DNA of 64,000 nt, taken from NCBI GenBank assembly GCA_038247415.1, contig JBBRUX010000005.1, forward strand, positions 32,001 through 96,000, given 5' to 3'. Shown here in pieces: positions 16,101 to 33,312 of the stretch. The translations under genes were made by a program, and so were the position numbers. The notes beneath the pieces were generated by a model. It ran no database searches. It had not been told where the DNA came from and worked only from the letters and a program-made list of their open reading frames with translations. The first letter of the stretch is position 1. Every line of letters starts with the position of its first letter. The stretch comes from Chitinivibrionales bacterium (GTDB taxonomy: Bacteria; Fibrobacterota; Chitinivibrionia; Chitinivibrionales; WJKA01).

Positions 16101-16151
16101 CTATATGAATTCGATAGCAGCCAATGTGCCGGATAGTAACAAAATGCTTAT

Positions 16152-16225
16152 TAGATATTTTTTTATCTAATCTATTGACTCAACTATTTTTAATGAGTAT
16201 ATTATTATCGATAAGAAATTATCTA
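16152..16225 (+). promoter_or_regulatory. sigma70 promoter of rex-adhE flanked by two putative Rex operators
   Basis: TTGACT(16175)-17 bp-TATATT(16198); 18-mers TAGATAT-TTTT-TTATCTA (16152-16169) and TCGATAA-GAAA-TTATCTA (16208-16225) with Rex-type 7-4-7 geometry. Confidence 0.6.
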
Positions 16226-16245
16226 TTAACTTCAAGGAAGCGCAA

Positions 16246-16902
16246 ATGGCCACAAATTTTACTTTTCGGGCTACTCCCCAGCCAACTATTAAAAGAATCC
16301 CCGCTTACCTAGCAATCCTTAAAGAACTGGAACTAGCTGGTCAAATCACCGTTTCTACTACTGATATTGCAGATAGATTAGCCTTGAATCCTATTCAAGT
16401 CCGAAAAGATCTTTCGATAACAGGCATTACGGGTAGACCAAAAATTGGGTACATCACCACAGAACTCATTGCGGGGATTTACAATTTTTTAGGATGGCAC
16501 AATACCAAAGACGCAGTTCTTGTTGGTGCTGGAGCGCTTGGATCAGCTCTTTTAGGATACAAGGGGTTTGCTGGATACGGATTGCGCATTACCGCGACAT
16601 TTGATTCGTCTAAAAAGCTTATAGGCAAAACAATTCATGGCCGAGTTGTTGCACCTATCAACGAGCTTGAAGATTTCATACGCCAAAGCGCTATACGGAT
16701 AGGAATCATTACTGTTCCTGCCGAAGCTGCTCAGGATATTGCTTATCAATGTGTGAGAGCAGGCATTAGAGGGATCTGGAATTTCTCTCCTGTAAAACTT
16801 GCAGTGCCACATCAGGTTGTGGTACAAAACGAAGATCTCTCGAGTGGTCTTGCACTCCTTTCAGTAAAGATTTCCGAAAAGCTTTCAGCAGACTCTAGGT
16901 AG
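16246..16902 (+). CDS. rex: Redox-sensing transcriptional repressor Rex
   Basis: PTIKRIPAY, QVRKDLS...G...IGY winged helix; LVGAGALG Rossmann motif; GIWNFSP. Confidence 0.95.
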   Translation: MATNFTFRATPQPTIKRIPAYLAILKELELAGQITVSTTDIADRLALNPIQVRKDLSITGITGRPKIGYITTELIAGIYNFLGWHNTKDAVLVGAGALGSALLGYKGFAGYGLRITATFDSSKKLIGKTIHGRVVAPINELEDFIRQSAIRIGIITVPAEAAQDIAYQCVRAGIRGIWNFSPVKLAVPHQVVVQNEDLSSGLALLSVKISEKLSADSR

Positions 16903-17002
16903 CCTGGATCCTAGACTCTTCACGAAGGCAACGGATACCAGGCAGATTGGTTCTCTCACGGTTTTTTTGTATAAACCATTTCATGAAATAAAGGAGTCTT
17001 AT

Positions 17003-19636
17003 ATGACAAACAAAAATACACATAAAACTGCTCCAAAAGGCATACCCTTGCACAGCGAAGTTGATCCCGCAGGGGTTGTTGAAGCCCTGGTAAACCGCGT
17101 TAAAGCAGCCCAGGAAGTATACGCACAGTTTACACAGGAACACGTCGATCGAATTTTTGAACTGGCTGCCATCGCGGCAAATAAACAACGTATAAGCCTT
17201 GCGAAAGCAGCAAAAGAAGAAACGGGAATGGGTCTGGTGGAAGACAAAATCACTAAAAATCATTTTGCCTCCGAATACATTTACAATAAATATCGCGACA
17301 TGAAGACTTGCGGAACCATCGATCGCGATGATGCAGCCGGTATCATTAAAGTTGCCGAACCCCTTGGTATTATAGCTGGGGTTATTCCCGTAACTAATCC
17401 CACAAGTACAGCAATCTTCAAATCGTTGCTGGCCCTCAAAACAAGGAACGGTATCATTTTTTCGCCTCATCCTCGCGCAAAGAACTGCACTATTGCCGCT
17501 GCAAAAGTAGTACTTGACGCAGCGATACAAGGTGGAGCTCCCCGGGATATTATCGCCTGGATCGATGAACCCACTCTCGAAAGCAGCAACGCTCTTATGC
17601 AGCATCCTGGTATTGCAACCATTCTGGCAACAGGCGGTCCAGGAATGGTTAAAGCTGCATATAGCTCGGGAAAACCAGCACTGGGAGTAGGCGCTGGCAA
17701 TACCCCGGCAGTAATAGATGAAACAGCTGATATTCGCATGGCCATCAGCAGTATCCTTATTAGCAAAACATTTGATAATGGCATGATCTGCGCCTCGGAA
17801 CAGGCACTCGTTGTTGTTGACAGCGTATACGAATCTGTCAAAGAGCATCTGATTGCAGCACGGTGCATGATTCTGAATAAAGATCAACGAGATGCAGTTG
17901 GTAAAACAATAATCATACATGGACGTCTCAATGCAGAAATTGTAGGCCAACCAGCCTCTGTTATTGCACACATGGCTGGAATAGAAATCGCTGCCGAGAC
18001 CAAGGTTCTTGTTGGTGAAGTAACGCGCGTTGCAATGGACGAACCATTTGCCCACGAAAAACTTTCGCCAGTTCTTGGGCTTTTTAAAGCAAAGGATTTT
18101 GCCAATGCGCTTGATATAGCAAGCGCACTCCTTACCATGGGTGGAATGGGTCATACAAGCGTGCTGTATACAAACCAGAATAATGTCGAACGGATAAAAA
18201 CCTTTGGAGAACGCATGAAAACTGGCCGTACACTTATCAATATGCCTGCAAGCCAAGGAGCAATAGGGGATCTTTACAACTTTAGCCTTTGCCCATCGCT
18301 GACGTTGGGATGCGGTAGTTGGGGAGGAAATTCTGTGAGCGAAAATCTAACACCAGAACATCTGCTCAATATCAAAACTGTTGCAATGCGCAAAGAGAAT
18401 CTGCTCTGGTTCAAAGTCCCTGAAAAAGTTTACTTTAAAAGAGGTAGCCTCGAACACGCTCTCAACGATCTTGCTGGCAAAAAAAAGGCATTTATTGTTA
18501 CTGATAGGTTTCTTTTCGATAATGGCCTTTTAGCTCCGCTTATTGAGAAACTGGGCCGTTTAGGTATTTTGTTTGATGTTTTTGCCGATGTAGAACCCGA
18601 CCCAACCATTGCTACTGCTCGTAAAGGAGTTCACGAAATGGCGGGGTTTAAGCCCGATGTAATTATTGCCATTGGTGGTGGTTCGCCCATGGACGCTGCA
18701 AAAATTATGTGGCTCCTCTATGAGCATCCGGAAGCAGATTTCGAAAATCTTGCCATGCGCTTTATGGATATTCGCAAAAGAGTGTACACCTTTCCAAAAC
18801 TTGGAAGGTTAGCAAGCTTTGTAGCAATTCCAACCACCTCGGGAACTGGATCGGAAGTAACTCCCTTTGCTGTAATAACTGATGAAAAAACAGGTATGAA
18901 ATATCCCATTGCAGACTATGAACTTACTCCCGACATTGCTATTATTGATGCAGATCTGGCTGCACGCATGCCAAAAAACCTAACTGCCTATTCGGGGATC
19001 GATGCGCTGACTCATGCACTCGAAGCTATGGTAAGCGTGGTTGCAACCGAGTTTACAACACCGTATGCACTGGAAGCCACTCGCCTGATTTTCGAATACC
19101 TGCCTAAAGCATACGCTCTGGGCGAAGCTGATATGGACGCGCGCGAAAAAGTGCATCATGCATCTGCTATGGCAGGAATGGCTTTTGCCAATGCTTTTTT
19201 GGGGGCATGTCATTCGATGGCGCACAAACTTGGCGCATACTTTCACCTTCCTCACGGACTAGCAAACGCATTGTTAATCGAAGAGGTAATGCACTACAAC
19301 GCAGCAATTAGTCCAACCAAACAAGGTGTTTTTCCTCAGTATACCCACCCGCAAGCTCTGGAACGCTATGCCCGTATGGCAGATTATTGTGGACTTGGTG
19401 GAACAGACCCAATAGATAAATGCGAACGCCTTATTGCAAAGGTTGCCGCCCTCAAGGAAGAACTCGGCATTCCAAAAAGTATTGCTGAGGCTGGAATCGA
19501 TAAAAATGCTTTTATGGCCAAGCTAGACGAAATGGTAGAGGCTGCGTATGATGACCAGTGTACCGGTGCAAATCCACGCATACCAATGATGAGCGAAATG
19601 AAAGAACTCTATTTACAAGCGTATAGTCAGAAGTAG
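17003..19636 (+). CDS. adhE: Bifunctional acetaldehyde-CoA/alcohol dehydrogenase
   Basis: ALDH domain (PVTNPTST, ATGGPGMV, FDNGMICASEQ) plus Fe-ADH domain (GGGSPMDAAK, PTTSGTGSE, CHSMAHK...HG); RBS AAGGAG before ATG 17003. Confidence 0.97.
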   Translation: MTNKNTHKTAPKGIPLHSEVDPAGVVEALVNRVKAAQEVYAQFTQEHVDRIFELAAIAANKQRISLAKAAKEETGMGLVEDKITKNHFASEYIYNKYRDMKTCGTIDRDDAAGIIKVAEPLGIIAGVIPVTNPTSTAIFKSLLALKTRNGIIFSPHPRAKNCTIAAAKVVLDAAIQGGAPRDIIAWIDEPTLESSNALMQHPGIATILATGGPGMVKAAYSSGKPALGVGAGNTPAVIDETADIRMAISSILISKTFDNGMICASEQALVVVDSVYESVKEHLIAARCMILNKDQRDAVGKTIIIHGRLNAEIVGQPASVIAHMAGIEIAAETKVLVGEVTRVAMDEPFAHEKLSPVLGLFKAKDFANALDIASALLTMGGMGHTSVLYTNQNNVERIKTFGERMKTGRTLINMPASQGAIGDLYNFSLCPSLTLGCGSWGGNSVSENLTPEHLLNIKTVAMRKENLLWFKVPEKVYFKRGSLEHALNDLAGKKKAFIVTDRFLFDNGLLAPLIEKLGRLGILFDVFADVEPDPTIATARKGVHEMAGFKPDVIIAIGGGSPMDAAKIMWLLYEHPEADFENLAMRFMDIRKRVYTFPKLGRLASFVAIPTTSGTGSEVTPFAVITDEKTGMKYPIADYELTPDIAIIDADLAARMPKNLTAYSGIDALTHALEAMVSVVATEFTTPYALEATRLIFEYLPKAYALGEADMDAREKVHHASAMAGMAFANAFLGACHSMAHKLGAYFHLPHGLANALLIEEVMHYNAAISPTKQGVFPQYTHPQALERYARMADYCGLGGTDPIDKCERLIAKVAALKEELGIPKSIAEAGIDKNAFMAKLDEMVEAAYDDQCTGANPRIPMMSEMKELYLQAYSQK

Positions 19637-19670
19637 TGATAATTGTCAAAAAAAGAAATGTGTGTTTAAA

Positions 19671-19705
19671 AAAAAGGGAAAGACAAGAATTGTCTTTCCC
19701 TTTTT
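19671..19705. terminator. Bidirectional intrinsic terminator
   Basis: Perfect 16-bp stem aaaaagggaaagacaa-gaa-ttgtctttcccttttt between convergent adhE and the cqsA-like operon. Confidence 0.85.
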
Positions 19706-19779
19706 AAAAACCTTAGCGCCATAATTTTATGCAGTATCTGGCAATATTTCAGGTAACAAGAAGCTAACCGAGCACATTC

Positions 19780-20454
19780 TCAGATTTCCCCAATCATAAG
19801 CCCCTTCATCAATTGTAAATATTCTTCTCTCTTGCCATCAAAGTCGACCGGCTTTTGAAAGAACTCAAAAAACCTGCTATGGCGCAATGTCCGATAGAGA
19901 AGATTATTATCGTGCTCGGGATTACCCGTGATGAGAATGAAACGGATATTAGGACGGATTTTATGAACTTCATCGCAGAGCTCATTTCCTCGCATGCCAG
20001 GCATAACTTCATCGGTTATTACAAGTCGCACTTCTGGAGTAACTTTAATGAATTCTAAAGCTTCGAGAGGATCTAAGAATGTTTTTAAATTAAGATCTTT
20101 TGCAAACTTTCGCCTAAAAATAAAGAGATTTTGTTCCTCGTCATCAACATACAGCGCTAGGGGGTTTTCTGTGGGAGAAGGCCCTATTTTTTGTCGTATG
20201 CGGTCAAAAACGAGACCTATTGTTGCATCGTTAAATATTTGAGGCACACAATAGGGCTCTAAATCCAAGCGGCGTCCATCAAAGCGGACTTCAAGCTCAC
20301 GTGCAAATTCAGAAAACGACAAGATGTCAAAGCCATATGCCGTTAGCTTACTATCCTTGTGCAACTCGGAATCGAGCGATTTCAGGTCTTCGTAATCCCC
20401 ACAGATTGTGTCAACCGCAGATTTAATAACTTCGTAGAGGTCAGTGTCTCTCAT
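19780..20454 (-). CDS. Fusion of an ACP-like domain (no canonical Ser) and a receiver (REC) domain
   Basis: N-terminal ~90 aa has the ACP pattern (DSKL.AYGFDILSFSEFARELEVRF..TIG); C-terminal REC intact (YVDDE, ITDEVMPG, ITG, QKP). ATGA overlap with the upstream cqsA-like gene. Confidence 0.75.
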   Translation of the reverse strand: MRDTDLYEVIKSAVDTICGDYEDLKSLDSELHKDSKLTAYGFDILSFSEFARELEVRFDGRRLDLEPYCVPQIFNDATIGLVFDRIRQKIGPSPTENPLALYVDDEEQNLFIFRRKFAKDLNLKTFLDPLEALEFIKVTPEVRLVITDEVMPGMRGNELCDEVHKIRPNIRFILITGNPEHDNNLLYRTLRHSRFFEFFQKPVDFDGKREEYLQLMKGLMIGEI

Positions 20455-21641
20455 AGTGAACGCAAGCCTTTCGGAAATTGCGATGTAATATTGAGCATTT
20501 TGAGGGAATCGATAATCTGCTCTGCCATATATTCAATTTCTTCTTCTGTTATACCAAAATATATTGAAAACCGAGCCAAGCTCGTATTTTCGGGAACTGC
20601 AGGAGGTAAAAAAGCAGAAAAAAGTATTTTTCTTTTTTTAAGCTCGCTATATAATTGACACACCGATTCCACTCCTTTAAACATCAATGATACTATCTGA
20701 CATTTACTCGGACCGGTATCGACGCCTTTTTCATTGAGAAGCTTACGAAGAAGTGCTGCTCTGGCATGCATGGTTATTGCACGCTCTGGTTCGCGCATGA
20801 GAATTTCTAATGCCTTGCAATTTCCGGCAGACGTGGCAGGGGTTGGAGCAGAACTAAAAATAACCGATCGAAGCCGATAGGTTAAATAATGGGCGGTTTG
20901 GATATCTGCAATAATAAAGCCCCCATGACCGCCCAATCCCTTTGCAATACTTACCGTTCGCAAGGGAATGCGTGACGCAAGCCCTTGTTCAACAGCTAAT
21001 CCCCCACCTTTTTCTCCGCATAATCCAAATGAGTGCGCTTCGTCAACAACTAACAAACAGCCAGTTTCTTCGCATATATCCACATATTCATGCAAATTTG
21101 CAACGCTGCCGTTAGTACTATAATACGAATCGACGGCTACAATACCAGGACCAAATGTCTTGACAAATTGACGAAGAGATGCTATGTCATTATGTCGAAG
21201 GGGAATTATCCGACTTCCGGCAAAACGCGCGCCATCCCACAACGATGCATGCGCATAGATATCGAGGTACACGGGAATATCCGGGCTTGCAATTGCTTCT
21301 ATAAGCCCAACATTTGCAGTCCAGCCACAGGTAGTAAGCACAATACTTTCTGGGCCTTCTGCCTGAGCAGATTCAGCAATTTTACGCTGAAAATCGCCAT
21401 GAAAACCACTAAAACCACCATATACGACCGAGGCCATTGCACCAGAACCAGTGAGTTCGGTTGCTTTGTTACGTGCAAGCGTTACTTCTGGATGCGAAGA
21501 AAGTCTCAGGTAGTCATTATGATGACAAGCTATGAATCCGTCGCAATCTTCTGGTTGATCAAAAGGAAATGGATTGAGTGCAGCAAGGCGTCCCATTGTG
21601 GGGATCTTATGTTTTTCAAACCAAACGGGTAGCATCGCCAT
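20451..21641 (-). CDS. cqsA: CqsA/LqsA/JqsA-family alpha-hydroxyketone autoinducer synthase (PLP-dependent alpha-oxoamine synthase fold)
   Basis: NDYLRLSSHP, GWTANVGLI, VYLDIYAHASLWDGAR, RHND, GPGIVAVDSYYST.G, VDEAHS, SIAK. AHxSLWxG, GPGI and DSxYST match CqsA/LqsA as I recall them, not BioF (NHAS, VFSMDG). Confidence 0.82.
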   Translation of the reverse strand: MAMLPVWFEKHKIPTMGRLAALNPFPFDQPEDCDGFIACHHNDYLRLSSHPEVTLARNKATELTGSGAMASVVYGGFSGFHGDFQRKIAESAQAEGPESIVLTTCGWTANVGLIEAIASPDIPVYLDIYAHASLWDGARFAGSRIIPLRHNDIASLRQFVKTFGPGIVAVDSYYSTNGSVANLHEYVDICEETGCLLVVDEAHSFGLCGEKGGGLAVEQGLASRIPLRTVSIAKGLGGHGGFIIADIQTAHYLTYRLRSVIFSSAPTPATSAGNCKALEILMREPERAITMHARAALLRKLLNEKGVDTGPSKCQIVSLMFKGVESVCQLYSELKKRKILFSAFLPPAVPENTSLARFSIYFGITEEEIEYMAEQIIDSLKMLNITSQFPKGLRSL

Positions 21642-21665
21642 CTCGTAATTCCCTTAAAAAAATGT

Positions 21666-22826
21666 TTATACTACTTCTTGAGAAGCAATTTCATAGGCTT
21701 CTACCATGCTGGTACACCCTTGACATCCAATACATCCAGCACTATTTCCAACACCAAAGGATAACCCCCGATGGTGCATTCGTCGAGCAGCCTCCAGATA
21801 CAGCGACACGAGATCATCGAGTGAATGTTTTAGGTAGCTTGGAACCATATTTACAAGATGATTGCTATGAGGACGTACCAAAAGCAGCGTTGTTAGTACC
21901 CCAATAGATGCAAATTCGTCGATGCTTTGTAGAACTTTTTCGTACTTTTCTCCAAAGCCCAGAATACACGTGGTGTTAACAGAATTTTTACCATACGCCG
22001 CAACCGCAGCTTCCCAATTTCTTATATAGTCATCGCGGGAACAGCGCGATTTTCCTGGACAGATTTCTTTGCGAATATCTTCATCGAGGATTTCGAGAAA
22101 AATCCCCAGCGAATCTGCATACTTGGCAGTTTCGGCAATGAGTGACAAATCTTTTACCGGTTCGTGCTGTATATGAACCGAAATGTTCACACGTTCCTTA
22201 ATTTTCTTTACTAAGTCAATAAGTTCACGTACCACGACATCATTATCGGCAAATGTACCAGAAGTAATAGTAAGTGATCGCACTCCCTGTTGCGATGCCA
22301 AAGCTACTGCTTCAACGAATTTATCGATATCTTGTTTGGCTGCCCATTCGTTTATTCCTTTGCCAACCGGCTCAAGTTCACAATAGCGACATTCAAGACC
22401 ATCGGCAAAATGTTTGCATTCGTGGGCATACACCGACACGGCAGTAGCGTAACAATGCGTGCTAATACCTATTTCCATCATTGGTGTACCATCTTTAAGC
22501 GTTGCCCGTAAAAACGAAGGAATCGTTCTGCTTTTAAGCACAGCACCATTTGTTGCCGTTATAATTTTTTTAAGAGAATCATATTCCGATTGGATTGCAT
22601 ATGCCCCAAGCCAATGATCGAGGCCATATATTGGCAAACTTATCATACTCGAAAATTCATTATCCACGGCAGATCGCATATGGAAAGTTTTGCCTTGTGG
22701 ACCCGCACCAGTTCCTTTGGAAATAAAACTGCTGAGGGGAACACCATTTACGGTGGGTGGCGCAATACCCCGAGATTGGAGCTCGAGACGGCGGCGAAAC
22801 TGTGTCATTTGTGGAGAGTTTTGCAT
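21666..22826 (-). CDS. Radical SAM enzyme with CX8CX2C motif (MSMEG_0568-like)
   Basis: CKHFADGLECRYC; TITSGT; DEDIRKEICPGKS; C-terminal AGCIGCQGC. Start placed at ATG 22826 just after the FAAL stop. Confidence 0.78.
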   Translation of the reverse strand: MQNSPQMTQFRRRLELQSRGIAPPTVNGVPLSSFISKGTGAGPQGKTFHMRSAVDNEFSSMISLPIYGLDHWLGAYAIQSEYDSLKKIITATNGAVLKSRTIPSFLRATLKDGTPMMEIGISTHCYATAVSVYAHECKHFADGLECRYCELEPVGKGINEWAAKQDIDKFVEAVALASQQGVRSLTITSGTFADNDVVVRELIDLVKKIKERVNISVHIQHEPVKDLSLIAETAKYADSLGIFLEILDEDIRKEICPGKSRCSRDDYIRNWEAAVAAYGKNSVNTTCILGFGEKYEKVLQSIDEFASIGVLTTLLLVRPHSNHLVNMVPSYLKHSLDDLVSLYLEAARRMHHRGLSFGVGNSAGCIGCQGCTSMVEAYEIASQEVV

Positions 22827-22842
22827 TTTAAAATTCTTTATA

Positions 22843-24501
22843 TCATTTAAAAAGCGTAAGTGAATTGTTAATAAGTCTTTCTTTGATAACTTTACGACGT
22901 TTTTTTCCACTCGATGTCTTCTCGATACTCCCTTTTCCGCAAAAGTAAACATGCGTTAACAAAAGTGCAAAAGATCTGAATATTAAATCCTGAATTTCTT
23001 TACGACGTGCCACTGCATCCGCCGATTCGAGCGGTTTTGTTTCGATAAGCGCATGAAGCTCTGCAACACCCGTTTGAGCATTCTCTAGAGAAAGCACAAC
23101 AGTGCATCCACTGCGAACATTTTCCAAACTTTCGATACACTGCTCGATATCGTCTGGAACAATGTTGCGCCCGCCAATAATAATAAGATCGTCTTTACGG
23201 GAGTGGAAAAAAAGTTCTCCATCATAGGTAAATCCGATATCGTTAGTGCACAGCCAGCCATTTTTAAGTGCCTTTTGAGTCGCCTCCGGATTTTTTAAAT
23301 AACCGGATGTTAAACAAGGGCCTTTTACAAAAATCTCCCCTAAGGCTAAATCTGGCAAAACTTCACCCGCAGTGCTTCGAACTTCAAGCAAAGTACCCTT
23401 AAATGGTTCTCCTATAGAAACAATTTCTAGAGATTCCTTGTCGGATTCATCCGAGAGCGACAGCTTTTCAGATTCGTCTACCCTAACGCGTAGAACCGTT
23501 GCCCCGTCGCTTCGTTTGGTTGAAGTTGCGCCAAGCGCATTTTCGGCCATGCCATAGCCCACGTGAATATGGCGCGATTGCAATTTGTGTTTTGACAACA
23601 AATCTATTGCACGCCGTAAAACAATACCCGTTACTTTTTCTGCACCAAAATACAAATCGAGCCGACTCAAATCGAGAGTGTCTGCCGTGGAATGTCCTAA
23701 AAGCTTAATAGTATGGGCCATTGCCGCGTTGGTTGTAAAATTAAGTCCTGTTTTATGCTCAGCCAACAGCTTAAACCACCTAAGGGGGTTCATCATATAC
23801 CAACGAGGCGAAACAAGAATATTGTCAACACCCTTATATAAAGGAAGCAGAATCCCAATAAAAAGGCCCATGTCATGATTAAAGGGAAGCCAGGATGCAC
23901 AGTGTTTAAGCTCTATCCCCGATGCCAGCGTGTATTCGAACCCAAGCACATCTACTTGGTTTAAAACCATTTGATGAGTCACAATAACACCTTTAGGAAT
24001 TCCCGTGCTTCCCGAAGAATATTGAATAACTGCATACTCACTAGGCGATACGGCAACACGTTCCAGAAAAGGTTTTCCTGTATGTTCTTGCAAATCCTTG
24101 AGCGATATGGCCTGTTTACCGGTGAGCGTACACCATGCTGCGGCCATGGCTTTATCGTCGGCTGTTTCACAAATAATAGTTGCAAATGCGCAACTATGTT
24201 CCACTCTGCCAAGATACTGTTCATAATCTTCGGATAACCCCATTACGGGTCTTAGAGGCACAGCTACTGCACCTAAACGCCAAACAGCTAAAATAATCGT
24301 AACATATTCATGACGATTAGTTAGCAATATACCCACGGTGGATGATTTCCCAACGCCTATTTCTGCAAGGGCGGTAGCATACAAACCAGAAGATTCCCAA
24401 AGATTTGAAAGTTTAAATTCACTTTTCTCTTCTGGAAATTTCCAAACAGGATCATATTTCTGTATGTTTTTTTCTACACTAGCAAGCAATGTATCTTCCA
24501 T
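22843..24501 (-). CDS. Fatty acyl-AMP ligase (FAAL)
   Basis: QYSSGSTGIPKG, SWLPFNHDMGL, FGAE, GYGMAE followed by a FAAL-type insertion, RKDDLIIIGGRN, KTSSGK; RBS AGGA before ATG 24501. Confidence 0.88.
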   Translation of the reverse strand: MEDTLLASVEKNIQKYDPVWKFPEEKSEFKLSNLWESSGLYATALAEIGVGKSSTVGILLTNRHEYVTIILAVWRLGAVAVPLRPVMGLSEDYEQYLGRVEHSCAFATIICETADDKAMAAAWCTLTGKQAISLKDLQEHTGKPFLERVAVSPSEYAVIQYSSGSTGIPKGVIVTHQMVLNQVDVLGFEYTLASGIELKHCASWLPFNHDMGLFIGILLPLYKGVDNILVSPRWYMMNPLRWFKLLAEHKTGLNFTTNAAMAHTIKLLGHSTADTLDLSRLDLYFGAEKVTGIVLRRAIDLLSKHKLQSRHIHVGYGMAENALGATSTKRSDGATVLRVRVDESEKLSLSDESDKESLEIVSIGEPFKGTLLEVRSTAGEVLPDLALGEIFVKGPCLTSGYLKNPEATQKALKNGWLCTNDIGFTYDGELFFHSRKDDLIIIGGRNIVPDDIEQCIESLENVRSGCTVVLSLENAQTGVAELHALIETKPLESADAVARRKEIQDLIFRSFALLLTHVYFCGKGSIEKTSSGKKRRKVIKERLINNSLTLFK

Positions 24502-24520
24502 GTAATTCCTTGGTAAATAT

Positions 24521-24769
24521 CTATGTATGAGCTGCGATAAATGTAGCCAGATCATTTAGTGTCCGTAGTTCCTTAATTACTGTAGCATTAGGAATCGCAA
24601 GCTTGAACTTTTCTTCTACGAGTGCTTGAAGCTGCATAAGCGTCATAGAATCAATCATACAATCTTCAATAAGATCTTTTCCTACAACATCCTTAGCTGG
24701 CTGGTCAAAGAGGTGGTGTTCATCACATAAATTAACAAGTGAGGTGAGTATCTGATCTTTATTTGCCAT
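24521..24769 (-). CDS. Acyl carrier protein
   Basis: 82 aa acidic protein with IDSM phosphopantetheine Ser, VEEKF, TLNDL; RBS GGAG; first gene of the operon. Confidence 0.88.
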   Translation of the reverse strand: MANKDQILTSLVNLCDEHHLFDQPAKDVVGKDLIEDCMIDSMTLMQLQALVEEKFKLAIPNATVIKELRTLNDLATFIAAHT

Positions 24770-24849
24770 TGCACTGCTCCTTAGGAAAAATATGGTTGAA
24801 TGCGCGGGAGATTAACTTTTAGTGAACGAAAATAGATTATTCCCTCTTG

Positions 24850-24878
24850 ATTATACGGGTTTTTGTTTTTTGAGTCAA
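24850..24878 (-). promoter_or_regulatory. sigma70 promoter of the ACP-FAAL-rSAM-cqsA operon
   Basis: Minus strand TTGACT-17 bp-TATAAT, about 80 bp upstream of the ACP start. Confidence 0.75.
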
Positions 24879-24920
24879 TTTATAACTTATAATGTTTGCA
24901 CGCCATGCCTAAAAAGAAAG

Positions 24921-24941
24921 TTATCATGCATGCCATGATAA
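24921..24941. promoter_or_regulatory. Perfect inverted repeat, putative transcription-factor site
   Basis: TTATCATG-N5-CATGATAA located 42 bp upstream of the operon -35 hexamer. Confidence 0.4.
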
Positions 24942-25000
24942 TGGATAACAAATTGATTTTGCTTAGAATGTCAGCTATTCAAGCGTCAACGATGGCCCAA

Positions 25001-26674
25001 TCAATTATCTTCTGGTTCGACCCGGCGAGCACTTGCATACCGCGCAGTGGCTTCTACCGAGGATGTTTCTGAAATCTGTCGCAAGCGGGCTAGTGCTGCA
25101 GGATGTTCGATATTGTACCAGTCGCGTGGCATTAGATCGCTGCTAAAATCATGACAACCTTCAACCATATCAAGGCCGCGTGGAACAACGTCCGGATTAT
25201 TGAGCACTTGCCGACATCGATGCGCATACAGATACACAATAGCATCCATAAGCTTTCCGGGCTTGTGTTTATGCGAAGGCATTTTTTCGAGAAGCTGCTC
25301 AAACAAGCGTGATGCGTTTGCCATGGTTCCCTCATTGAAATACGCATAAATTCCTTGACGTATAGAATCACGGGTTTCGTCTTTGTATGCTACAACTTCA
25401 CGTGCCTGATGTCCGTAAATTTCAAATACCTCAAATTTTTTATGGTATCCCTTAACGCGCAAAATATCAACCATACGAGAATGCTGATCATCCTGAAGAT
25501 CATCCATGACTTCCTGACTCACCACTATTTCTAATCCATACAGTTTTGCTACCGATTCTAGCCGGGAACACACATTGACTGCAGTACCAATCCAAGTACG
25601 ATCATATTTTTTTTCGGAGCCAATATTCGCTTCCAACACAGAACCTTTGGCAATGGCAATTACATTGGCCATTTTAGGCATGCCAGCTATCACAAGTTGC
25701 TTGTTGTAAATTTGCAAACTTTGTCGCATGAGCAGCGCAGCCTCTACCGCTGTTTTACCATCGGGGAAAATTGCCATCACGGCATCACCCATCAGTTTAT
25801 CAACCTCGCCTCCAGCCGAAAACACTGGGTCAATCATCATTTCAAAATATTTATTAAGAAATTGAGCCTGCACATCTGGGTCGGTCATCGATTCGGTAAG
25901 TGGCGTAAAATTTCTCATATCGCAAATGAGAATAGCTTTATCGCTCATGCGAGGCTTAAATTGACGAGGATCTCGGCCTTGATTAACTTCATTAACAACC
26001 GAGGGTCTTACAAACGTTGAAATAATAGCATTGCGAGCAACGAGTTCAGAATTTTTATGTTCAAGCACCAGTTGTCTACGCAGGGCATCTTCGGCTCGTA
26101 GGCGCTCTTTTGTGGTATCCAGCGAAATAACATAAAAGATGTCAAGCGCAAGCTTTATCATGGCAATAACCATAGATGAAAGCCATGCAATTGCGAATGC
26201 TCCTACCATATTGGAGAGCGTGGATACAGCAGATCCTGTTTGTATAAGGTAACTCGCTGCCGCGCAGATAAGGCCAAGAGGAAAAGCAACTACCGAAAAA
26301 TAAACTTTAGAAGAAGTAAATCCATACACAAAACCTGCCCACATCAGCGAGGCATACCAATACTGGTTCATATTGTTATGCATCATGAGGTTTGCAAATA
26401 CAAACGGGAACATAAAAACAAGCGCTGCTTCCCAATACACTTTATGCCATGTTTGAAATGGAGAGTTTTTGGGAAAAAATACGAAAGGGATAGTGATCGC
26501 AACAATAATCAACCGGAGCAACAAATCTTCGTGATAGCCCAGATAAAATTTACAAATCAGATAAAAGAGCATGTTTGAGAGCGGAGCAATTACACCCATA
26601 AAGAAGGCAAACTTCTCGGTAGTATAAAATTTGGGAGAGCGGGTGATCCCAATGGCAGTTTTAAGATAATCCAT
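25001..26674 (-). CDS. Membrane adenylate cyclase (class III) with a CqsS/LqsS-like 6-TM sensor domain
   Basis: Six hydrophobic segments with YHEDLLLR and FPFVFANLMMHN...WYAS; coiled coil; cyclase motifs ICDMRNFT, VDKLMGDAVM, YDRTWIGTAVNVCSRLES. Start placed at ATG 26674. Confidence 0.82.
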   Translation of the reverse strand: MDYLKTAIGITRSPKFYTTEKFAFFMGVIAPLSNMLFYLICKFYLGYHEDLLLRLIIVAITIPFVFFPKNSPFQTWHKVYWEAALVFMFPFVFANLMMHNNMNQYWYASLMWAGFVYGFTSSKVYFSVVAFPLGLICAAASYLIQTGSAVSTLSNMVGAFAIAWLSSMVIAMIKLALDIFYVISLDTTKERLRAEDALRRQLVLEHKNSELVARNAIISTFVRPSVVNEVNQGRDPRQFKPRMSDKAILICDMRNFTPLTESMTDPDVQAQFLNKYFEMMIDPVFSAGGEVDKLMGDAVMAIFPDGKTAVEAALLMRQSLQIYNKQLVIAGMPKMANVIAIAKGSVLEANIGSEKKYDRTWIGTAVNVCSRLESVAKLYGLEIVVSQEVMDDLQDDQHSRMVDILRVKGYHKKFEVFEIYGHQAREVVAYKDETRDSIRQGIYAYFNEGTMANASRLFEQLLEKMPSHKHKPGKLMDAIVYLYAHRCRQVLNNPDVVPRGLDMVEGCHDFSSDLMPRDWYNIEHPAALARLRQISETSSVEATARYASARRVEPEDN

Positions 26675-26747
26675 AAATTTTGCACTCTGATTGAAAGCGC
26701 ATCTCTCTTTTCCTACATACCTATTATTTTGGTACTTATTGTAACTT

Positions 26748-26776
26748 ATTTTATCACATCGGGTTGAATAGCGCAA
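26748..26776 (-). promoter_or_regulatory. Putative sigma70 promoter of the sensor-cyclase gene
   Basis: Minus strand TTGCGC-17 bp-TAAAAT. Confidence 0.5.
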
Positions 26777-26833
26777 GAGAGCAAACAAGTATTGTCGATT
26801 TTTCTTTGAATGCTTGCCTAGATAGATCCTACC

Positions 26834-28027
26834 ATGATAAACTTTGATACTATGAACTCAGAAACCATCCTTGATTTATTTGATGTTGAACCAATAAACG
26901 AAAAACGCATATCTGAACGTGCATTTCTTACCGTTGCGGTCACCCTTGAAATTGGGGATCGGCTTGTACGCGGCGTCGAATGCAAAAACGTCAGTCTTGG
27001 CGGTATGTTCCTAATTTCGAAGGTTCATATTCCCCTTGGAAGCGTTGGAACAGTTACTCTTACAAAACGCTGCGATAAAAAAAGAGTGAGCTTTTCTGCC
27101 GATTTTGAAGTCGTACGTCACGAAGGAGAAACAAAAGAAGATATTGGGCTTGGCCTTAAATTTATTCGACTTACCGATGAAGATAGACTTGCAGTCGAAT
27201 TCATTGTTGATTTCCGCACGGGTGTAACCCTTCGGGAACGATTAGATTTGTCGGAAGAGAAAATTTCGGACATCCGCTTTAAAATTGCGCAAACCCAAGA
27301 AGAACTAGCTGGAGCATTTTCACTTGTTCACGATTCCTATGTAACGCGAGGTTACATGGATCCCGACCCAAGCGGTATGCGCTTGAGCATCCACCACGCC
27401 ATGCCTCTAACAACAGTTGTTATTGGCGTTCAAAACAATCGAGTTATTGCTGCTTCGGCACTTTTTTTAGACTCCCCCATTGGCTTGCCCATGGACAATC
27501 TTTACAAGAGAGAGCTTTCTGAATTTCGCCAAAACAGGCGACTCATAGCAGAAATTGGGGCATTTGCCGTTCACCAAGATTTGCGAGCATTTACAACAAC
27601 ACTCGTGCTGCATCTTCAAAAGCTGATGTTTTTATACACCTTTAGATACCTGAATCTCGATGATATTGTTTTGGTAATAAACCCGCGACACAAGCTTTAT
27701 TATCAACATGTCTTATTAGCCAACCAAATTGGGCCCGAGCGCGTTTACCAAAAGGTAAAAGGAAATCCGGCCATTGCCATGTCGATGGATGTTCGCAAAG
27801 CACAAGATCGTTTTAAAGAAAGCTATTCTACCCTACCCGACAATAAAAACTTGCATCGCTTTTTTTACGAACATACAAGCGAATGCCTACAAATGCCTGA
27901 ACTTCGTCAGCCTATTGTCACGTGGAATCGCGCATTGCTGCATTATTTTTTCGAAGAACGGTCGAAACTTTTCGAGACAACAAGCGCCGATACCATAAAA
28001 TTTATTCTTAGCCATTACGAGAATTAA
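26834..28027 (+). CDS. PilZ domain fused to an N-acyl amino acid synthase (FeeM/NAS GNAT-fold)
   Basis: PilZ: RISER (RxxxR) and NVSLGG. NAS: FKIA...AFSLVHDSY..RGY, DSPIGLP.D, AEIGAFA, INPRHKLYY, PAIAM. Confidence 0.78.
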   Translation: MINFDTMNSETILDLFDVEPINEKRISERAFLTVAVTLEIGDRLVRGVECKNVSLGGMFLISKVHIPLGSVGTVTLTKRCDKKRVSFSADFEVVRHEGETKEDIGLGLKFIRLTDEDRLAVEFIVDFRTGVTLRERLDLSEEKISDIRFKIAQTQEELAGAFSLVHDSYVTRGYMDPDPSGMRLSIHHAMPLTTVVIGVQNNRVIAASALFLDSPIGLPMDNLYKRELSEFRQNRRLIAEIGAFAVHQDLRAFTTTLVLHLQKLMFLYTFRYLNLDDIVLVINPRHKLYYQHVLLANQIGPERVYQKVKGNPAIAMSMDVRKAQDRFKESYSTLPDNKNLHRFFYEHTSECLQMPELRQPIVTWNRALLHYFFEERSKLFETTSADTIKFILSHYEN

Positions 28028-28028
28028 T

Positions 28029-28811
28029 ATGTCAACTGCAACAAGTGCTGGTTACGTTTCTGCCGACTATCTCAAAGCACTTGCGCAGGCAGCAGAACCC
28101 ATAAAAAAGCGCATACGAGATTTGCTTGCGCTAGGCTCCAACTCAAAAATTCTTGATGCGGGCTGTGGTCCTGGCACCGATACTATTCCTTTAGCACGTT
28201 TACTGAATAATTCGGGCATAATTTGTGGCATGGATGCCGATAGATCTATGATTCAAGCCGCGCAAACCCGCATACAAGTAGAATGGTTCCAAAATCTTTA
28301 TCATTATGTCGCTAACGCCACTGCAATTCCTTGCAAAACCAACAGTTTTGATGCAGCATTTTGTGATCGGGTATTACAACACATTAAAGATGCTCATAAC
28401 GCAGTCGCCGAAATGTGTCGTATAGTAAAGCCTGGTGGGAAAATTGTACTTGTCGATTCAGATCATTCCTCACTGAGCATTTCGACAAATAATTCATCAA
28501 CAGAATGTGCATTGCGAACCTGGAGAACTCAAAGATTACACAATGGCCTCGCTGCTCGTAATCTTGGCACCTATGCAATTAAAGCAGGGCTATTACTAGA
28601 AAGTATAGAGTGCATCCCTTTTCTATCTCGCAGCTATGCAGGATTTAGGCTCGGAACAGCTGCAGATCTTGTTGAGCAAGAAGCCGTTACACGAGGGATT
28701 ATATCGTCCGATCAATTAGATTCATATAAATCTGACCTGGAAGATCTCGATCGCGCCAATGCATTTTATTCTGTAATTCCTATGATAATACTCTCAGCAA
28801 CTAAACCGTAA
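28029..28811 (+). CDS. Class I SAM-dependent methyltransferase (UbiE-like)
   Basis: ILDAGCGPG, GMDAD, NATAIP...SFDA, DRVLQH, RIVKPGG. Confidence 0.88.
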   Translation: MSTATSAGYVSADYLKALAQAAEPIKKRIRDLLALGSNSKILDAGCGPGTDTIPLARLLNNSGIICGMDADRSMIQAAQTRIQVEWFQNLYHYVANATAIPCKTNSFDAAFCDRVLQHIKDAHNAVAEMCRIVKPGGKIVLVDSDHSSLSISTNNSSTECALRTWRTQRLHNGLAARNLGTYAIKAGLLLESIECIPFLSRSYAGFRLGTAADLVEQEAVTRGIISSDQLDSYKSDLEDLDRANAFYSVIPMIILSATKP

Positions 28812-29332: not shown

Positions 29333-31616
29333 ATGAATGATGCAAACCTTCGTGGTACCACCGTGGCTCCTGAATTGGAATGGCATAGCAATCCGATGTT
29401 GCGCAATGTGTCAAAACGCATTGTTCAGCCCATGATCAGATATCTTGACGCTGAATTTGGTACTACCATTACGAATCAAATTATTGCCGAAAGTGATCAT
29501 GATCGTGATTTTTTTGAAGATGTTTATGGATTTATGCCCATTGAAACCACCGAGAAAATGTTTGCGAGTGCAATCCGCATAACTGATAACCCCGACTTCG
29601 CCTACAAAATGGGAAAAGAAATCTGGAAATACACTCCAACAATTCAAGCCCTTCTTGGAATAACCGTAGCTACCCCTTCTTTGCTTTTTGAGAATATGAA
29701 CAACATCGAAGGAAAAGCCGTACGTACAACAATAGTTGACACTCAAAAATTTGGGGCTTCCAAATATAGGCTTAGCATTAGCTTTAGGGGCGGCTTTGTG
29801 GAACCAGCCAATGCATGCCGTAATAGGCATGGAACCTACGAATCGGCCACACAAATGTTCGGTTTACCACCATCCAAAGTTGAGCACCCCCAGTGCCGAT
29901 TTAGAGGCGACGATCACTGCGTGTACGATATTACCGTCCCTGAACAATCATTTTTTATTTATCAAAAAATTTCGTTTATAATTGGCTTTTTGGGTTTGGT
30001 AGGCTTTGGTCTCTTTGCACTTTTGCACTCCCCTATTCTTGCAATAGTTGGAAGTCTTTGCATCCCGTTAGCGCTCGGTTCGTACCTCTTTTTCTTGAGA
30101 TCGCGCCTTACCGCAAATTTACGGTGGATTGCAAATGCAAAGCATTCAATTGAGGAGAATAGCAAAGATGTTTTAACTGAAATGAATCGCACGAAACATT
30201 TGCATGAGCTTACAAGCAACCTCAATAGCTGCTTATCTCCCCTATCTGTCGCGAAAGCAGCAACACATTCCCTTACCCACGATTTCAATTACGGCTCTGG
30301 GCAAGTTTGGCTTCTTAAAGACGACGACTCCCTTATGTGTACAGCAACATCTGGGTTAGCACAAAATCTTGAAGCCTCGGTGAAAAGTATTTCGTATTCC
30401 ATATCCGAGGGAATGAATCGCCCCGAAAGCTTTATTGCACATGTTATAGGCCGTAAAGAAATTCTCCTCATTAATGATGTTAAGACAAGTACACAAACCT
30501 TCATTGCACCCACTCAAGATTTGCTCCAATTGATCAATCCATCATCCTTTATTATTGTGCCGACTGCTTTGCTTTATTATTGTGCCGATTCTCGAAAAAA
30601 ACAAAGCAGTCGGCATGATCATTGGCGCAAACCATGAGGCTGGTGTTCAAGTAAAATATCTGGATCGTGTTATTTTCGAAGCACTTACGCTTGTCGTTTC
30701 AACAACATTGGCAAAGGCCAAAGTCTTTGAAAGCATGGAACGAAAACTCGAAAAAAGAAAGCAACTCTTGCGCGATCGTCAAGATGAATTGCTTATAGCC
30801 CGAAAGATATCAATTCAAAACGAAAAGGTCTCTGCGCTGGGGGAAATGGCCGCAGGCGTTGCGCACGAGATTAACAATCCGCTTAATTTCCTTGTTAATA
30901 TAGTAAGCGAGCTCGAACGAGACACAAAAGGGTTGCATGAAATAGCTGCACTCGGTAACACGTTTGCACCACAAAACATTCGCCATGAAATCGATAAAAT
31001 CTTTGTCGATTACAACCTTGCCGAGCGCATCACTGAATCGGACTATGTTTACACGCTCATCCGACAATCTCTTGCCCGTGCACAGAAAACGGTGAGTAGT
31101 CTGCGCATTTTTGCGCGCCAAGCCGGTAACGATGGAGTAAAACCCGAACCATTGTGCGAATTGATTCGTAGTGCATTCGAGATTATTCCACAAAAATATC
31201 GAGCAGATGTAACCCTTACGTGCGAGCTTGGTTCAGAGTGCGCGGTGCATGTTAATCGTATAGAATTCTCTCAGATAATTATTAATATCCTTACCAATTC
31301 CATAGAAGCCATGAATGGCAAAGGATCAATAAAAATTGACTTAGAAGAAACAAATCGATCTCATCTGGTTTCAATTTCAGATACTGGTTGCGGGGTTCCT
31401 CCCGAAAATAGAGCACTTATTTTTAAAGCCTTTTTTACCACACAAAATAAAGAACAGCATACCGGCTTAGGGCTTACGGTTGCGCTGGAACTTTCTCATA
31501 AAAATGGCGGTACTATCGAACTCGCACAAAAGCAACCCACTCTGGGAGCATGCTTTATAATTACTATACCTAAACCGTTCAAACCTTCGGCAGAGCTGGA
31601 TGCCCATGCCGCTTAA
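29333..31616 (+). pseudogene. V4R-like sensor-2TM-GAF-histidine kinase, frameshifted by a 25-nt insertion
   Basis: First ORF has V4R-type ACRN..G...HPQCRFRGDDHCVY, TM helices and the start of a GAF domain; second ORF has the GAF end, H-box AHEINNPL and N/G boxes. Deleting 25 nt at a 17-bp duplication gives one 752-aa ORF. Confidence 0.78.
30547..30588 (+). repeat. 17-bp direct repeat (ctttattattgtgccga x2, 8-nt spacer)
   Basis: Copies at 30547-30563 and 30572-30588 coincide with the kinase frameshift. Confidence 0.9.
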
Positions 31617-33312
31617 AAAAGGATTGCTTAAAAAAATTGCTGCATCAACTGCTATTATACTGGCTTTGATAATTATTTGCATATCCATTTTCTCTCATCT
31701 GACGTTGTGGTGGGGAACAGCCGAATTCTTTTTATGTATTGGCTTATTTATTATTATCTTCGATTGGCATGATCGTAGTTCGCTTCTCATGAAACAAAGC
31801 AATGCTAAAACAATCGAATTAGAACAAACTCATAATAGCCTCGTTCGTGCCAATGAGCACATTGTTGCCCTTCATGGTTTTTCTCAACAAATAACCGGAT
31901 GTGAAACTATACAATCGGTCTGCCACACCGTTACAACCGCACTTGTAAATAGTTTTTCATACGATGCGAGTATTTTTTGGCTCTGGGATAACACTCACAA
32001 CAAGCTTATGGCAATTTCTGCGGCAGGCAATATCCCTGCTCTAATAGACCTTCCTGATACGCTTACCCAACATGATGGCCTCTTGGAATCAGTGATGCGC
32101 TCAAAGCAAACCGTGCTCATTCGACGTCGCGAAGAAAAATCAAACGATAAAAATAACGAAAAAATAAAACTTCTCGAAAGCGTTGGTCTCTATTCTGTTG
32201 TGGTAACCCCGCTCATGCACGAAAACGAGATTCTTGGGGTTCTCTTGGCAGGTTTTCAGGAAATTCAAAGTATGGATACTCACGATGCAAAGGTCATCGA
32301 ATCGTTGCTCAACACAGCATCGGATCGTATGGCTAAAGGCCAGCTCGAGCTACTTGACGAAAAAGAAGAATCCGTTTTCAATTCGGTCTCTAACCTTGCA
32401 GGTAATGCCCTTGCGCGAGTAATCATGTTTTCGAGCATGGAAGCTCAAATTGAAAAGCGTGCCAAAGAGCTAACCTTAACCCACGAAAAACTTGCTCAAA
32501 CACGAGAAATAATCATTCAGGTCGAGAAGCTTTCATCTCTTGGGAAAATGGCTGCGGGCGTTATTCACGAAATCAACGACCCACTCAATTTTCTTGTTAA
32601 TATTTTGCCCGATCTTAAGCGCGACTTCGAGGGGCTCACACACATCAAAACGTTGCTGCTCACCCCAGACTGCCCTGCGGATTTAAAACAGAAAGTTCAA
32701 AACATTGTTGACGAGTACGAACTCGAATCTCATTTGGAAGAGCTGGACTTTATTTTTTCTCGAGCATCCGATGCACTAGGCAAAAGCTCTCGCATTGCTT
32801 CCGGGTTGCAGGTCTTTTCCCAAGGCGGCAAATCGGTGTCGAAATCATCAGATCTTATTGCGCTGGTTACCCAAACGCTCGAGCTTATTCCTCGCAAAAC
32901 CAAAGGGGATATCGCCATACATCTCGATCCTGCTTCCGAAATACTATGGGAAGTAAACCCCGATAGATTTTCCCAGGTTTGCATGAATCTCATTATCAAT
33001 GCACTAGATGCCATGAATGGGCAAGGCACATTAACCATTGCTGGAACATCTTCTGGTACACAGGCCCACATAAGCTTTTCAGATGATGGACCAGGCATTC
33101 CCCTAGCCATCCAGAAAAAAATCTTCGATCCCTTTTTCACAACAAAGCCTGCCGGAAAAAGTACGGGACTTGGGCTTACTATCTGCGCTGAAATCGTGCG
33201 TGATTATGGTGGCCGATTTGAAATCGATTCTGCACCCGGTACAGGAACCCGTTTCACCATATATTTCTCAGAAGAACAGCGCACAGCATTTAATCTGGCG
33301 CTTCCCGTATAA
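31600..33312 (+). CDS. Membrane sensor histidine kinase (2TM-GAF-HisKA-HATPase)
   Basis: IHEINDPL H-box, NLIINALDA, DDGPGI, FDPFFTTK, GTGLGL-type G2 box; paralogous to the upstream kinase. Confidence 0.9.
   Translation: MPMPLKKGLLKKIAASTAIILALIIICISIFSHLTLWWGTAEFFLCIGLFIIIFDWHDRSSLLMKQSNAKTIELEQTHNSLVRANEHIVALHGFSQQITGCETIQSVCHTVTTALVNSFSYDASIFWLWDNTHNKLMAISAAGNIPALIDLPDTLTQHDGLLESVMRSKQTVLIRRREEKSNDKNNEKIKLLESVGLYSVVVTPLMHENEILGVLLAGFQEIQSMDTHDAKVIESLLNTASDRMAKGQLELLDEKEESVFNSVSNLAGNALARVIMFSSMEAQIEKRAKELTLTHEKLAQTREIIIQVEKLSSLGKMAAGVIHEINDPLNFLVNILPDLKRDFEGLTHIKTLLLTPDCPADLKQKVQNIVDEYELESHLEELDFIFSRASDALGKSSRIASGLQVFSQGGKSVSKSSDLIALVTQTLELIPRKTKGDIAIHLDPASEILWEVNPDRFSQVCMNLIINALDAMNGQGTLTIAGTSSGTQAHISFSDDGPGIPLAIQKKIFDPFFTTKPAGKSTGLGLTICAEIVRDYGGRFEIDSAPGTGTRFTIYFSEEQRTAFNLALPV

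Follow-up and report, generated by a model that had tools for sequence, protein, structure and literature searches.

A CqsA-like synthase encoded with a candidate private acyl supply and a receptor-like nucleotide cyclase in a Fibrobacterota genome

We analysed a 64,000-nt stretch of a sediment Fibrobacterota genome (Chitinivibrionales bacterium, assembly GCA_038247415.1, contig JBBRUX010000005.1). This whole stretch is called the window here, and all coordinates are positions within it. On the minus strand, from 24769 to 19780, five genes run head to tail in the order acyl carrier protein (ACP), fatty acyl-AMP ligase (FAAL), radical S-adenosylmethionine (SAM) enzyme, alpha-oxoamine synthase (AOS) and response regulator (RR). 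The spacing along this series is 19, 16, 24 and -4 nt, the last value marking an RR gene start that overlaps the AOS stop by 4 nt. The five genes make up one tight operon. Its features are as follows.

24850..24878, minus strand: promoter-like site, TTGACT-17-TATAAT, about 80 nt upstream of the ACP start
24521..24769, minus strand: ACP of 82 amino acids (aa), with the Ser in a DSM motif
22843..24501, minus strand: FAAL-like ligase; the open reading frame (ORF) opens at 24555, and the likely start is M19 at 24501
21666..22826, minus strand: variant radical SAM enzyme of 386 aa; the probable start at 22826 matches gene call P0126
20451..21641, minus strand: CqsA-like, pyridoxal phosphate (PLP)-dependent AOS of 396 aa
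19780..20454, minus strand: RR of 224 aa, with a Ser-less, carrier-protein-like N-terminus and a receiver domain

The promoter-like site matches the consensus at 11 of 12 positions and is the top site within 19300-27200; we treat it as a lead only, because the scan found 20 sites compared to 18.2 expected. An earlier, sequence-only reading of this DNA had placed an ACP and a FAAL at the head of an operon containing a CqsA homologue, and every one of these features lies where that reading put it. Its account of the operon was correct as far as it went, but incomplete, since it omitted the radical SAM gene, the regulator and a receptor-like cyclase encoded next to the operon.

CqsA and LqsA combine an acyl-CoA with SAM or aminobutyrate to form the precursor of an alpha-hydroxyketone. 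Among NCBIfam models, the window AOS scores best on NF005526 (alpha-hydroxyketone autoinducer synthase), with 294.7 bits against a cut-off of 428, followed by BioF (231, cut-off 426) and serine palmitoyltransferase (SPT; 207). Its scores on three SPT models are 207.3, 200.5 and 148 bits, with cut-offs of 640, 500 and 670, whereas true SPTs in the same scan reach 505-552 bits on SPT models. CqsA is also its closest solved structure (2wk7, 179 bits), ahead of SPT at 153.6. K234 aligns with the Lys of the SLAK motif in 2wk7 and DEAHS aligns with DESHS; this PLP-binding Lys and DEAHS are both invariant in 21/21 members of the AOS family. The N-terminus of the synthase had been described as divergent, with HHNDYL in place of the QSNDYL of CqsA. 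These two motifs do stand opposite each other in the alignment, but the window form is ordinary within its own family, in which H-(Q/H)-NDYL is the norm (consensus LHQNDYLRL) and H40 is invariant in 21/21.

Reference sequences place this family close to CqsA and outside it. Eleven other members of the window AOS clade score 284-319 bits on NF005526, compared to 160-220 bits for unrelated AOS and 478-697 bits for six bona fide CqsA drawn from a plasmid collection (Vibrio, Cupriavidus, Ralstonia, Streptomyces and Tistrella replicons). LqsA was sought in a Legionellaceae metagenome-assembled genome (MAG) and 25 of its family, where nothing exceeded the NF005526 cut-off, and none of 9 further AOS from the compared loci is a true CqsA. 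A quick maximum-likelihood tree unites the six true CqsA (SH-aLRT 98) and places the window AOS family (26 rows, SH-aLRT 98) as their sister, with an SH-aLRT of 100 for the split between these two groups and SPT/BioF-like AOS. Because the window AOS falls below the NF005526 cut-off and belongs to a separate sister clade, we consider it a member of a CqsA-like sister family and not a bona fide CqsA. The earlier assignment to the CqsA family therefore holds in that CqsA is the nearest relative by profile, solved structure and tree, and does not extend to the NF005526 equivalog. It is very improbable that the enzyme is a housekeeping AOS such as BioF or Kbl whose likeness to CqsA is incidental: BioF is its second NCBIfam row, but the score of 231 lies below the BioF cut-off, the genome bears another, more BioF/KBL-like AOS on contig C30, the tree joins the window enzyme to CqsA with a support of 100, and no biotin genes lie nearby.

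The AOS family is present in 14/296 genomes of the phylum Fibrobacterota; a scan of a collection of genome contigs with the single AOS protein gave no match. One and the same AOS sequence is found in a Kiritimatiellae MAG and a Nevskia MAG (L014 and L016), and the AOS of a Polyangia MAG and a Pseudomonadota MAG nest within the Fibrobacterota clade on very short branches (L001/L133 versus L184). For enzymes that are identical or nested across phyla in this way, mis-binned contigs are as likely an explanation as recent transfer.

The first two genes of the operon encode what appears to be an acyl-loading pair. The ACP scores 31.4 bits on Pfam PP-binding (cut-off 20.8) and reads ...MIDSMTL..., so that the Ser of the D-S-x motif is present. 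The ligase matches Pfam AMP-binding with an E-value of 4.6e-50. Its top NCBIfam rows are FAAL and fatty acyl-CoA ligase (FACL) subfamilies, every one of them below its cut-off (among the FAAL models, 262.5 versus 600 for PRK09192 and 208.8 versus 775 for PRK05850), and its closest solved structures are FAALs (7r7g, 3pbk, FadD23 and 3kxw). The FAAL-specific insertion is typically about 20 residues long. In a MAFFT alignment, the window ligase has an insertion of about 24 residues after GYGMAE that is absent from four non-FAAL adenylases and is common to the window FAAL and a homologue at locus L131 of a Fibrobacteres MAG; the alignment of the latter begins at residue 20 of the window ORF, where M19 is the likely start. 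Both the intact Ser of the ACP and the typical insertion of the FAAL had been noticed in the sequence-only reading, and these results bear them out.

Whether this pair belongs to the synthase was addressed by comparing gene neighbourhoods. The closest AOS (58% identity) are found in two genomes of the same order, G048 and G049, and both loci contain an ACP and an adenylating enzyme. In G048, genes for an ACP (76 residues), an AMP-binding enzyme (454 aa) and the AOS follow one another on one strand, with the ACP/ligase pair directly upstream of the AOS across a 17-nt gap, a divergent RR, and two histidine kinases (HKs) alongside. In G049, the order is a cyclase (48% identity), an ACP (92 residues), an AMP-binding enzyme (458 aa), a B12-radical SAM enzyme and two HKs, then an RR, then the AOS. 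The ligases in these two genomes are not orthologous to the window FAAL: they are short, share 23-35% identity with it over parts of their length, and are without the insertion. The three genomes thus share the core, and each has an accessory set of its own. A species-specific signal tail, which had been proposed for this locus, would fit the lack of orthology among the ligases and the change of tailoring radical SAM enzyme from one species to another; the evidence for it is gene context.

More distant relatives show a similar association. In a sister clade linked to sulfotransferases, a FAAL and an ACP are present in all 6/6 loci that are flanked by 4 kb or more on each side; counting every locus, the figure is 9/13, the other four having less than 2 kb upstream. 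The clusters of this clade consist of AOS, sulfotransferase, DUF1254/DUF1214 and short-chain dehydrogenase/reductase (SDR) genes together with a FAAL and an ACP, to which some loci add a fatty acid desaturase, and their hosts are Methylococcales, Lysobacteraceae, Nevskia, Pseudomonas, Sorangium and other MAGs. The AOS-sulfotransferase-DUF1254/DUF1214-SDR-FAAL-ACP cluster is conserved as such at loci L007, L011, L016, L022, L009, L020 and L140, ranges over Pseudomonadota, Bacteroidota and Myxococcota MAGs plus one Pseudomonas isolate, and may produce a sulfated amino- or hydroxy-ketone lipid.

The association is not universal. An RR adjoins the AOS in 11 loci, and 8 of these 11 have no ACP or ligase within the available flanking DNA, which suggests that a dedicated acyl supply is optional. 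The window's own genome (G000) contains a second AOS-RR pair of this kind, on contig C17 (locus L082, 8746-13237, minus strand), that shares 52% and 53% identity with the pair described here and is likewise without an ACP or ligase. This second pair is preceded by an FAD amine-oxidase-like gene and a flavodoxin/4Fe-4S ferredoxin gene, and may represent a second signal channel. Taken together, the comparative evidence suggests that an ACP/ligase pair accompanies this AOS family often, and not always. The earlier proposal that the synthase is fed acyl-ACP by a dedicated FAAL and ACP is thus favoured by gene context, namely the shared operon and the recurrence of the arrangement in G048, G049 and the sister clade, and is tempered by the many RR-linked loci that do without it.

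The third gene of the operon encodes an unusual, predicted radical SAM enzyme. It scores 42.2 bits on Pfam Radical_SAM (cut-off 29.5) and 132.9 on TIGR04043, below the cut-off of 303.7. Its Cys motif is Cx8Cx2C, not CxxxCxxC, and is kept in 21/21 homologues. The C-terminus carries the motif GCIGCQGC, within which CxxCxxC is likewise kept in 21/21 homologues; by sequence, these extra conserved Cys would suit an auxiliary cluster. A sequence search of solved structures gave no match for this enzyme. Its AlphaFold2 model (pLDDT 90.1) has its nearest folds in MgmA, BioB, LipA/LIAS, PylB, RlmN, HydE, ThiH and MqnE. The enzyme resembles the LipA/BioB/HydE/PylB group in fold (Foldseek E-values of 1e-6 to 5e-8, TM-scores of 0.42-0.62) and in its extra Cys that would suit an auxiliary cluster, and differs from that group in its Cx8Cx2C motif and in having no sequence-level match to a structure. 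The family is rare, with 23 matches and a presence in 2/296 genomes of the phylum, and among the matches listed in a metagenome scan with the radical SAM alignment all had at most 40% identity and none lay near an AOS, FAAL or ACP. LipA acts on a carrier-bound acyl chain. For the window enzyme, a plausible guess, and no more than that, is C-H functionalisation of a carrier-bound chain, perhaps by the insertion of sulfur.

The L131 locus bears directly on how these genes relate to the synthase. It holds ACP, FAAL, methyltransferase and radical SAM genes with no AOS within 10 kb, and its ACP, FAAL and radical SAM proteins share 32%, 39% and 49% identity with those of the window; a cysteine desulfurase-rhodanese gene comes after the radical SAM homologue. 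Because the ACP-FAAL-radical SAM trio is found there without an AOS, it can be considered a module in its own right. One interpretation is that in the window, too, the trio is an independent fatty-acid tailoring module, which came to lie between the cyclase and the AOS-RR pair by chance, and that the AOS, like CqsA, takes acyl-CoA or housekeeping acyl-ACP and nothing from this ACP. The 8/11 RR-linked loci that lack an ACP or ligase nearby and the unequal distribution of the two families (2/296 genomes for the radical SAM enzyme versus 14/296 for the AOS) would be consistent with such independence. We nevertheless consider it unlikely, given that the genes form one operon with gaps of 16-24 nt and a single good promoter-like site, that different ACP/ligase pairs accompany the orthologous AOS in G048 and G049, and that FAAL and ACP are constant in the sulfotransferase-linked sister clade.

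Other homologues of the radical SAM enzyme occur in quite different surroundings. L131 as a whole (782-20203) is a large cluster with methyltransferases, three radical SAM genes, START, a shikimate dehydrogenase-like gene, a thiamine pyrophosphate enzyme, the ACP-FAAL pair, the cysteine desulfurase-rhodanese gene, GT2, a CofC-like gene, a UbiA prenyltransferase and a polyprenyl synthetase. In the Omnitrophica-type loci L084 and L086, radical SAM homologues stand beside START, DFP-like and shikimate dehydrogenase-like genes, and both loci also carry a 7TM kinase/RR/HD-GYP set.

Three further genes near the operon encode putative signalling proteins.

25001..26788, minus strand: membrane class III nucleotide cyclase (P0006) of 595 aa, with a CqsS-type N-terminal sensor domain
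29333..31616, plus strand: large HK, co-conserved with the locus, split into two ORFs
31600..33312, plus strand: GAF HK, co-conserved with the locus, with Pfam GAF and HATPase_c domains

P0006 matches Pfam Guanylate_cyc over residues 282-455 (33.5 bits versus a cut-off of 21.9), preceded by transmembrane (TM) segments at residues 60-224. The catalytic motifs CD.R.FT, GEVDK..GD, DRT.IG.AVN and RLE are kept in 8/8 homologues, and we take their residues to be the class III metal-binding Asp pair, the Lys/Asp specificity pair, and the Asn and Arg. When the N-termini of 8 cyclases were compared by hhalign with 4 CqsS-type N-termini, taken from sensor domains of kinases encoded beside true cqsA, the result was 97.9% (E 3.1e-13, 157 columns), compared to 4.8% and 1.7% for reversed profiles and 0.1-0.2% for 8 column shuffles. 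P0006 alone reached 54% (E 1.3e-4) against the CqsS TM profile, and the best of 70 ORFs drawn at random from the genome's 267 multi-TM ORFs reached 2.6%. As judged by these profile comparisons, the N-terminal membrane domain of the cyclase is homologous to the CqsS-type sensor domain. A search of 1.84 billion representatives with a profile of this N-terminal domain of the cyclase found 308 proteins at E <=0.001. Among the best 150 of these 308, local hidden Markov models assigned a kinase core to 75 and a cyclase core to 27, while 27 were fragments of less than 300 aa and 21 were unassigned; 105 of the same best 150 also matched the CqsS TM model.

The association of such signalling genes with the synthase extends beyond the window. 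Cyclases like P0006 are present in 5 of the 11 loci in which an RR adjoins the AOS. At locus L042, the same cyclase-RR-cyclase-x-RR frame is found, with an AOS from a different family. The window's two kinases are orthologous (34-40% identity) to those beside the AOS and RR in G048 and G049: the large HK, read in two frames, shares 37-40% identity with its counterparts in L178 and L179, which are 733 and 864 aa long, and the GAF HK shares 39% and 34% with HKs adjoining the AOS/RR in L179 and L178. Neither of the two HKs matched the CqsS N-terminus, and an HNOB match at the N-terminus of one of them is weak (E 0.023) and not significant alone. The large HK is split by a 25-nt tandem duplication near 30547-30571 (region 30547-30588), where TTTATTATTGTGCCGA is present twice. 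Contigs from runs X1 and X3 of the same study are without these 25 nt, so that both halves of the HK fall in one frame, and run X2 carries the form seen in the window. The duplication could be either strain variation or an assembly artefact.

The last gene of the operon encodes a regulator of unusual architecture. Residues 101-205 match Pfam Response_reg (37.6 bits versus a cut-off of 30.2), and the DD, D, T and K of the receiver, which correspond to the acidic pair, the phospho-Asp, the Thr and the Lys, are invariant in 120/120 homologues. Residues 1-100 are modelled by AlphaFold2 with a pLDDT of 85.4. All listed Foldseek matches to this N-terminus are carrier proteins, with weak E-values of 0.1-1.5. 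In an unbiased VIA search, the top 50/50 entries are ACPs or peptidyl carrier proteins with Z-scores of 9.4-6.4, a list that is uniform, although small helical domains may often give Z <8; the root-mean-square deviations are mostly 2.2-3.7 Å, and up to 5.9. G-x-D is kept, and the position of the Ser is occupied by L/I/V in 107/120 homologues and by Ser in 2/120. The match to PP-binding is weak (E 0.16) and not significant alone. The family comprises 168 matches, all of about 220 aa. The RR might thus be a carrier-protein mimic under phosphorylation control.

We propose, with a probability of roughly 0.5, that the ACP-FAAL-radical SAM-AOS-RR series both makes and transmits a signal in the manner of CqsA/CqsS, from acyl chains that it supplies itself. 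The analysis establishes how the genes are ordered, which domains they encode, where the families fall, that synteny is conserved, and that the sensor domain of the cyclase is homologous to CqsS-type sensors. The substrates, the hand-off from ACP to AOS, the radical SAM step and the pairing of ligand with receptor are what we infer, as follows. The FAAL would adenylate a free fatty acid and pass the acyl group to the dedicated holo-ACP. The LipA/BioB-like radical SAM enzyme, with its putative auxiliary cluster, would modify either the carrier-bound chain or a later product. The CqsA-like PLP enzyme would then join the acyl thioester with an amino donor to yield an alpha-aminoketone, which may become a diffusible molecule of the alpha-hydroxyketone type. 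The CqsS-type membrane domain of the adjoining class III cyclase could sense this molecule and convert it into a cyclic nucleotide output, and the two HKs with the Ser-less carrier-domain regulator might form a second branch or provide feedback on synthesis. A bolder version of this scheme, which we put forward only tentatively and regard as doubtful, is that the locus holds a natural pairing of ligand and receptor, the receptor being a 6TM adenylate cyclase, in which a hydroxyketone-type autoinducer from the FAAL/ACP/radical SAM-fed synthase would bind the CqsS-type membrane domain of the cyclase and let cell density be read directly as cyclic nucleotide, and in which the Ser-less regulator, as an ACP mimic docking on the synthase or ligase, would tie phosphorylation to signal production.

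Several observations weigh against this proposal. True CqsA takes acyl-CoA, as far as the available part of the source goes (PMC9516700), and the window AOS fails the curated cut-off for that family. Both trees come from quick searches, with SH-aLRT as their sole measure of support. The absence of an ACP or ligase from 8/11 RR-linked loci and from the genome's second AOS-RR pair, and the occurrence of the trio without an AOS at L131, bear on the private acyl supply, and in G048 no cyclase lies near the AOS. In addition, the sulfotransferase, SDR and desaturase neighbours of the sister clade resemble lipid tailoring.

An alternative is that the product, instead of acting as a signal, is a secondary metabolite or an aminolipid with a structural role, similar to sphingoids or capnine, and that the signalling genes merely regulate its synthesis. 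The ligase/ACP/AOS trio mirrors the AasR/AcpR/SPT trio of sphingolipid synthesis as described in the accessible portion of PMC9386255, FAAL-preceded true SPTs were found in the same scan (514.8 bits versus a cut-off of 500 at L033), and the sulfotransferase, SDR and desaturase genes of the sister clade could be read in the same way. However, the window AOS reaches only 200-207 bits on SPT models with cut-offs of 500-640, and the operon contains no ceramide synthase- or reductase-like gene. The patchy distribution of the family (14/296 genomes), the two paralogous AOS-RR pairs in one genome, the CqsS-type ligand-sensing domain of the neighbouring cyclase, and the retention of the signalling context at L042, where the AOS has been swapped for one of another family, also speak against this alternative, which we consider improbable. 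The signalling neighbours, the CqsS-type cyclase domain, and the failed SPT models in an operon without ceramide-type genes point to a signal and not a membrane lipid.

The opposite strand near the operon carries genes for a PilZ-FeeM protein, a methyltransferase and a 132-aa ORF, in addition to the two HKs. The first of these (26834-28027, plus strand) encodes a fusion of a PilZ domain with an N-acyl amino acid synthase of the FeeM type; the methyltransferase (28029-28811) and the 132-aa ORF (28819-29217) come after it, and the series and the cyclase gene are divergently oriented. Since acyl-ACP is the substrate of FeeM-type enzymes, a second enzyme might draw on the private ACP. The PilZ-FeeM, methyltransferase and 132-aa genes are absent from all of the other compared loci, and we rejected the methyltransferase as a counterpart of the L131 methyltransferase since the likeness is merely generic. 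About 4 kb from the operon, a 182-aa ORF (15225-15773, minus strand) that matches the reverse transcriptase family RVT_1 (E 4.9e-17) may be a remnant of a group II intron or retron.

Three known systems provide a frame for the locus. Compared to CqsA/CqsS of Vibrio, in which, according to the available part of PMC9516700, CqsA uses decanoyl-CoA and SAM, and to related alpha-hydroxyketone autoinducer systems that combine an NF005526 synthase with an adjacent 6TM sensor kinase, the window has a PLP-dependent AOS that resembles CqsA most closely, aligns with it at the catalytic Lys and at DEAHS, and belongs to a sister clade; it also has an adjoining membrane protein with a CqsS-homologous sensor domain. 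It differs in that the synthase is below the family cut-off, FAAL, ACP and radical SAM genes share its operon, the putative receptor acts through a class III cyclase and not a hybrid histidine kinase, and the regulator has a carrier-protein-like domain. Precedent for a dedicated acyl supply comes from Rhodobacteria, in which the AasR ligase loads only the specialised AcpR and SPT uses acyl-AcpR, as given in the accessible portion of PMC9386255. This example indicates that an enzyme of the AOS superfamily can prefer acyl-ACP (PMC9386255, same portion). The likeness lies in an AOS encoded with a specialised ACP and ligase (again PMC9386255, as far as available); the window differs in having a CqsA-like AOS and not an SPT, a FAAL-type ligase with the insertion, no ceramide genes, and a signalling neighbourhood.

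The third system was engineered. Beltz et al. (2016) built a CqsS-Rv1625c chimera and framed a receptor hypothesis for 6TM cyclase anchors; in the part of the paper available, their survey places CqsS-type modules only on histidine kinases and describes the similarity of cyclase anchors as local (PMC4821796). The same part holds no description of a natural CqsS-cyclase fusion (PMC4821796). As in the chimera, a CqsS-type 6TM module is joined in P0006 to a class III cyclase catalytic domain. The chimera was made in the laboratory, whereas the fusion in the window is natural, recurs in 27 of the best 150 representatives, and adjoins a CqsA-like synthase. Literature searches of a limited collection returned nothing relevant that joins CqsA with a fatty acyl-AMP ligase, an alpha-oxoamine synthase with a FAAL or acyl-AMP ligase and an ACP, or CqsA with a sulfotransferase, no relevant match for Fibrobacter with CqsA, and no description of a response regulator with an acyl carrier protein-like domain.

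To our knowledge, alpha-hydroxyketone quorum sensing is known from a few proteobacterial systems, in which the acyl chain comes from the acyl-CoA pool and a hybrid kinase relays the signal. The locus is best read as distinguished from these by its sister-family synthase, its optional and swappable acyl supply, its cyclase-wired receptor module and its carrier-protein-like regulator. If it functions as we propose, it would widen the CqsA/CqsS kind of system to include the Fibrobacterota as well as a separate sister family of synthases. Swappable private modules, with different ligases and radical SAM enzymes in three related genomes, would offer a simple route to species-specific signals. The debate over whether the six-helix anchors of adenylate cyclases act as receptors has relied mostly on an engineered CqsS-cyclase chimera, and a natural fusion encoded beside a candidate ligand synthase would make this question directly testable.

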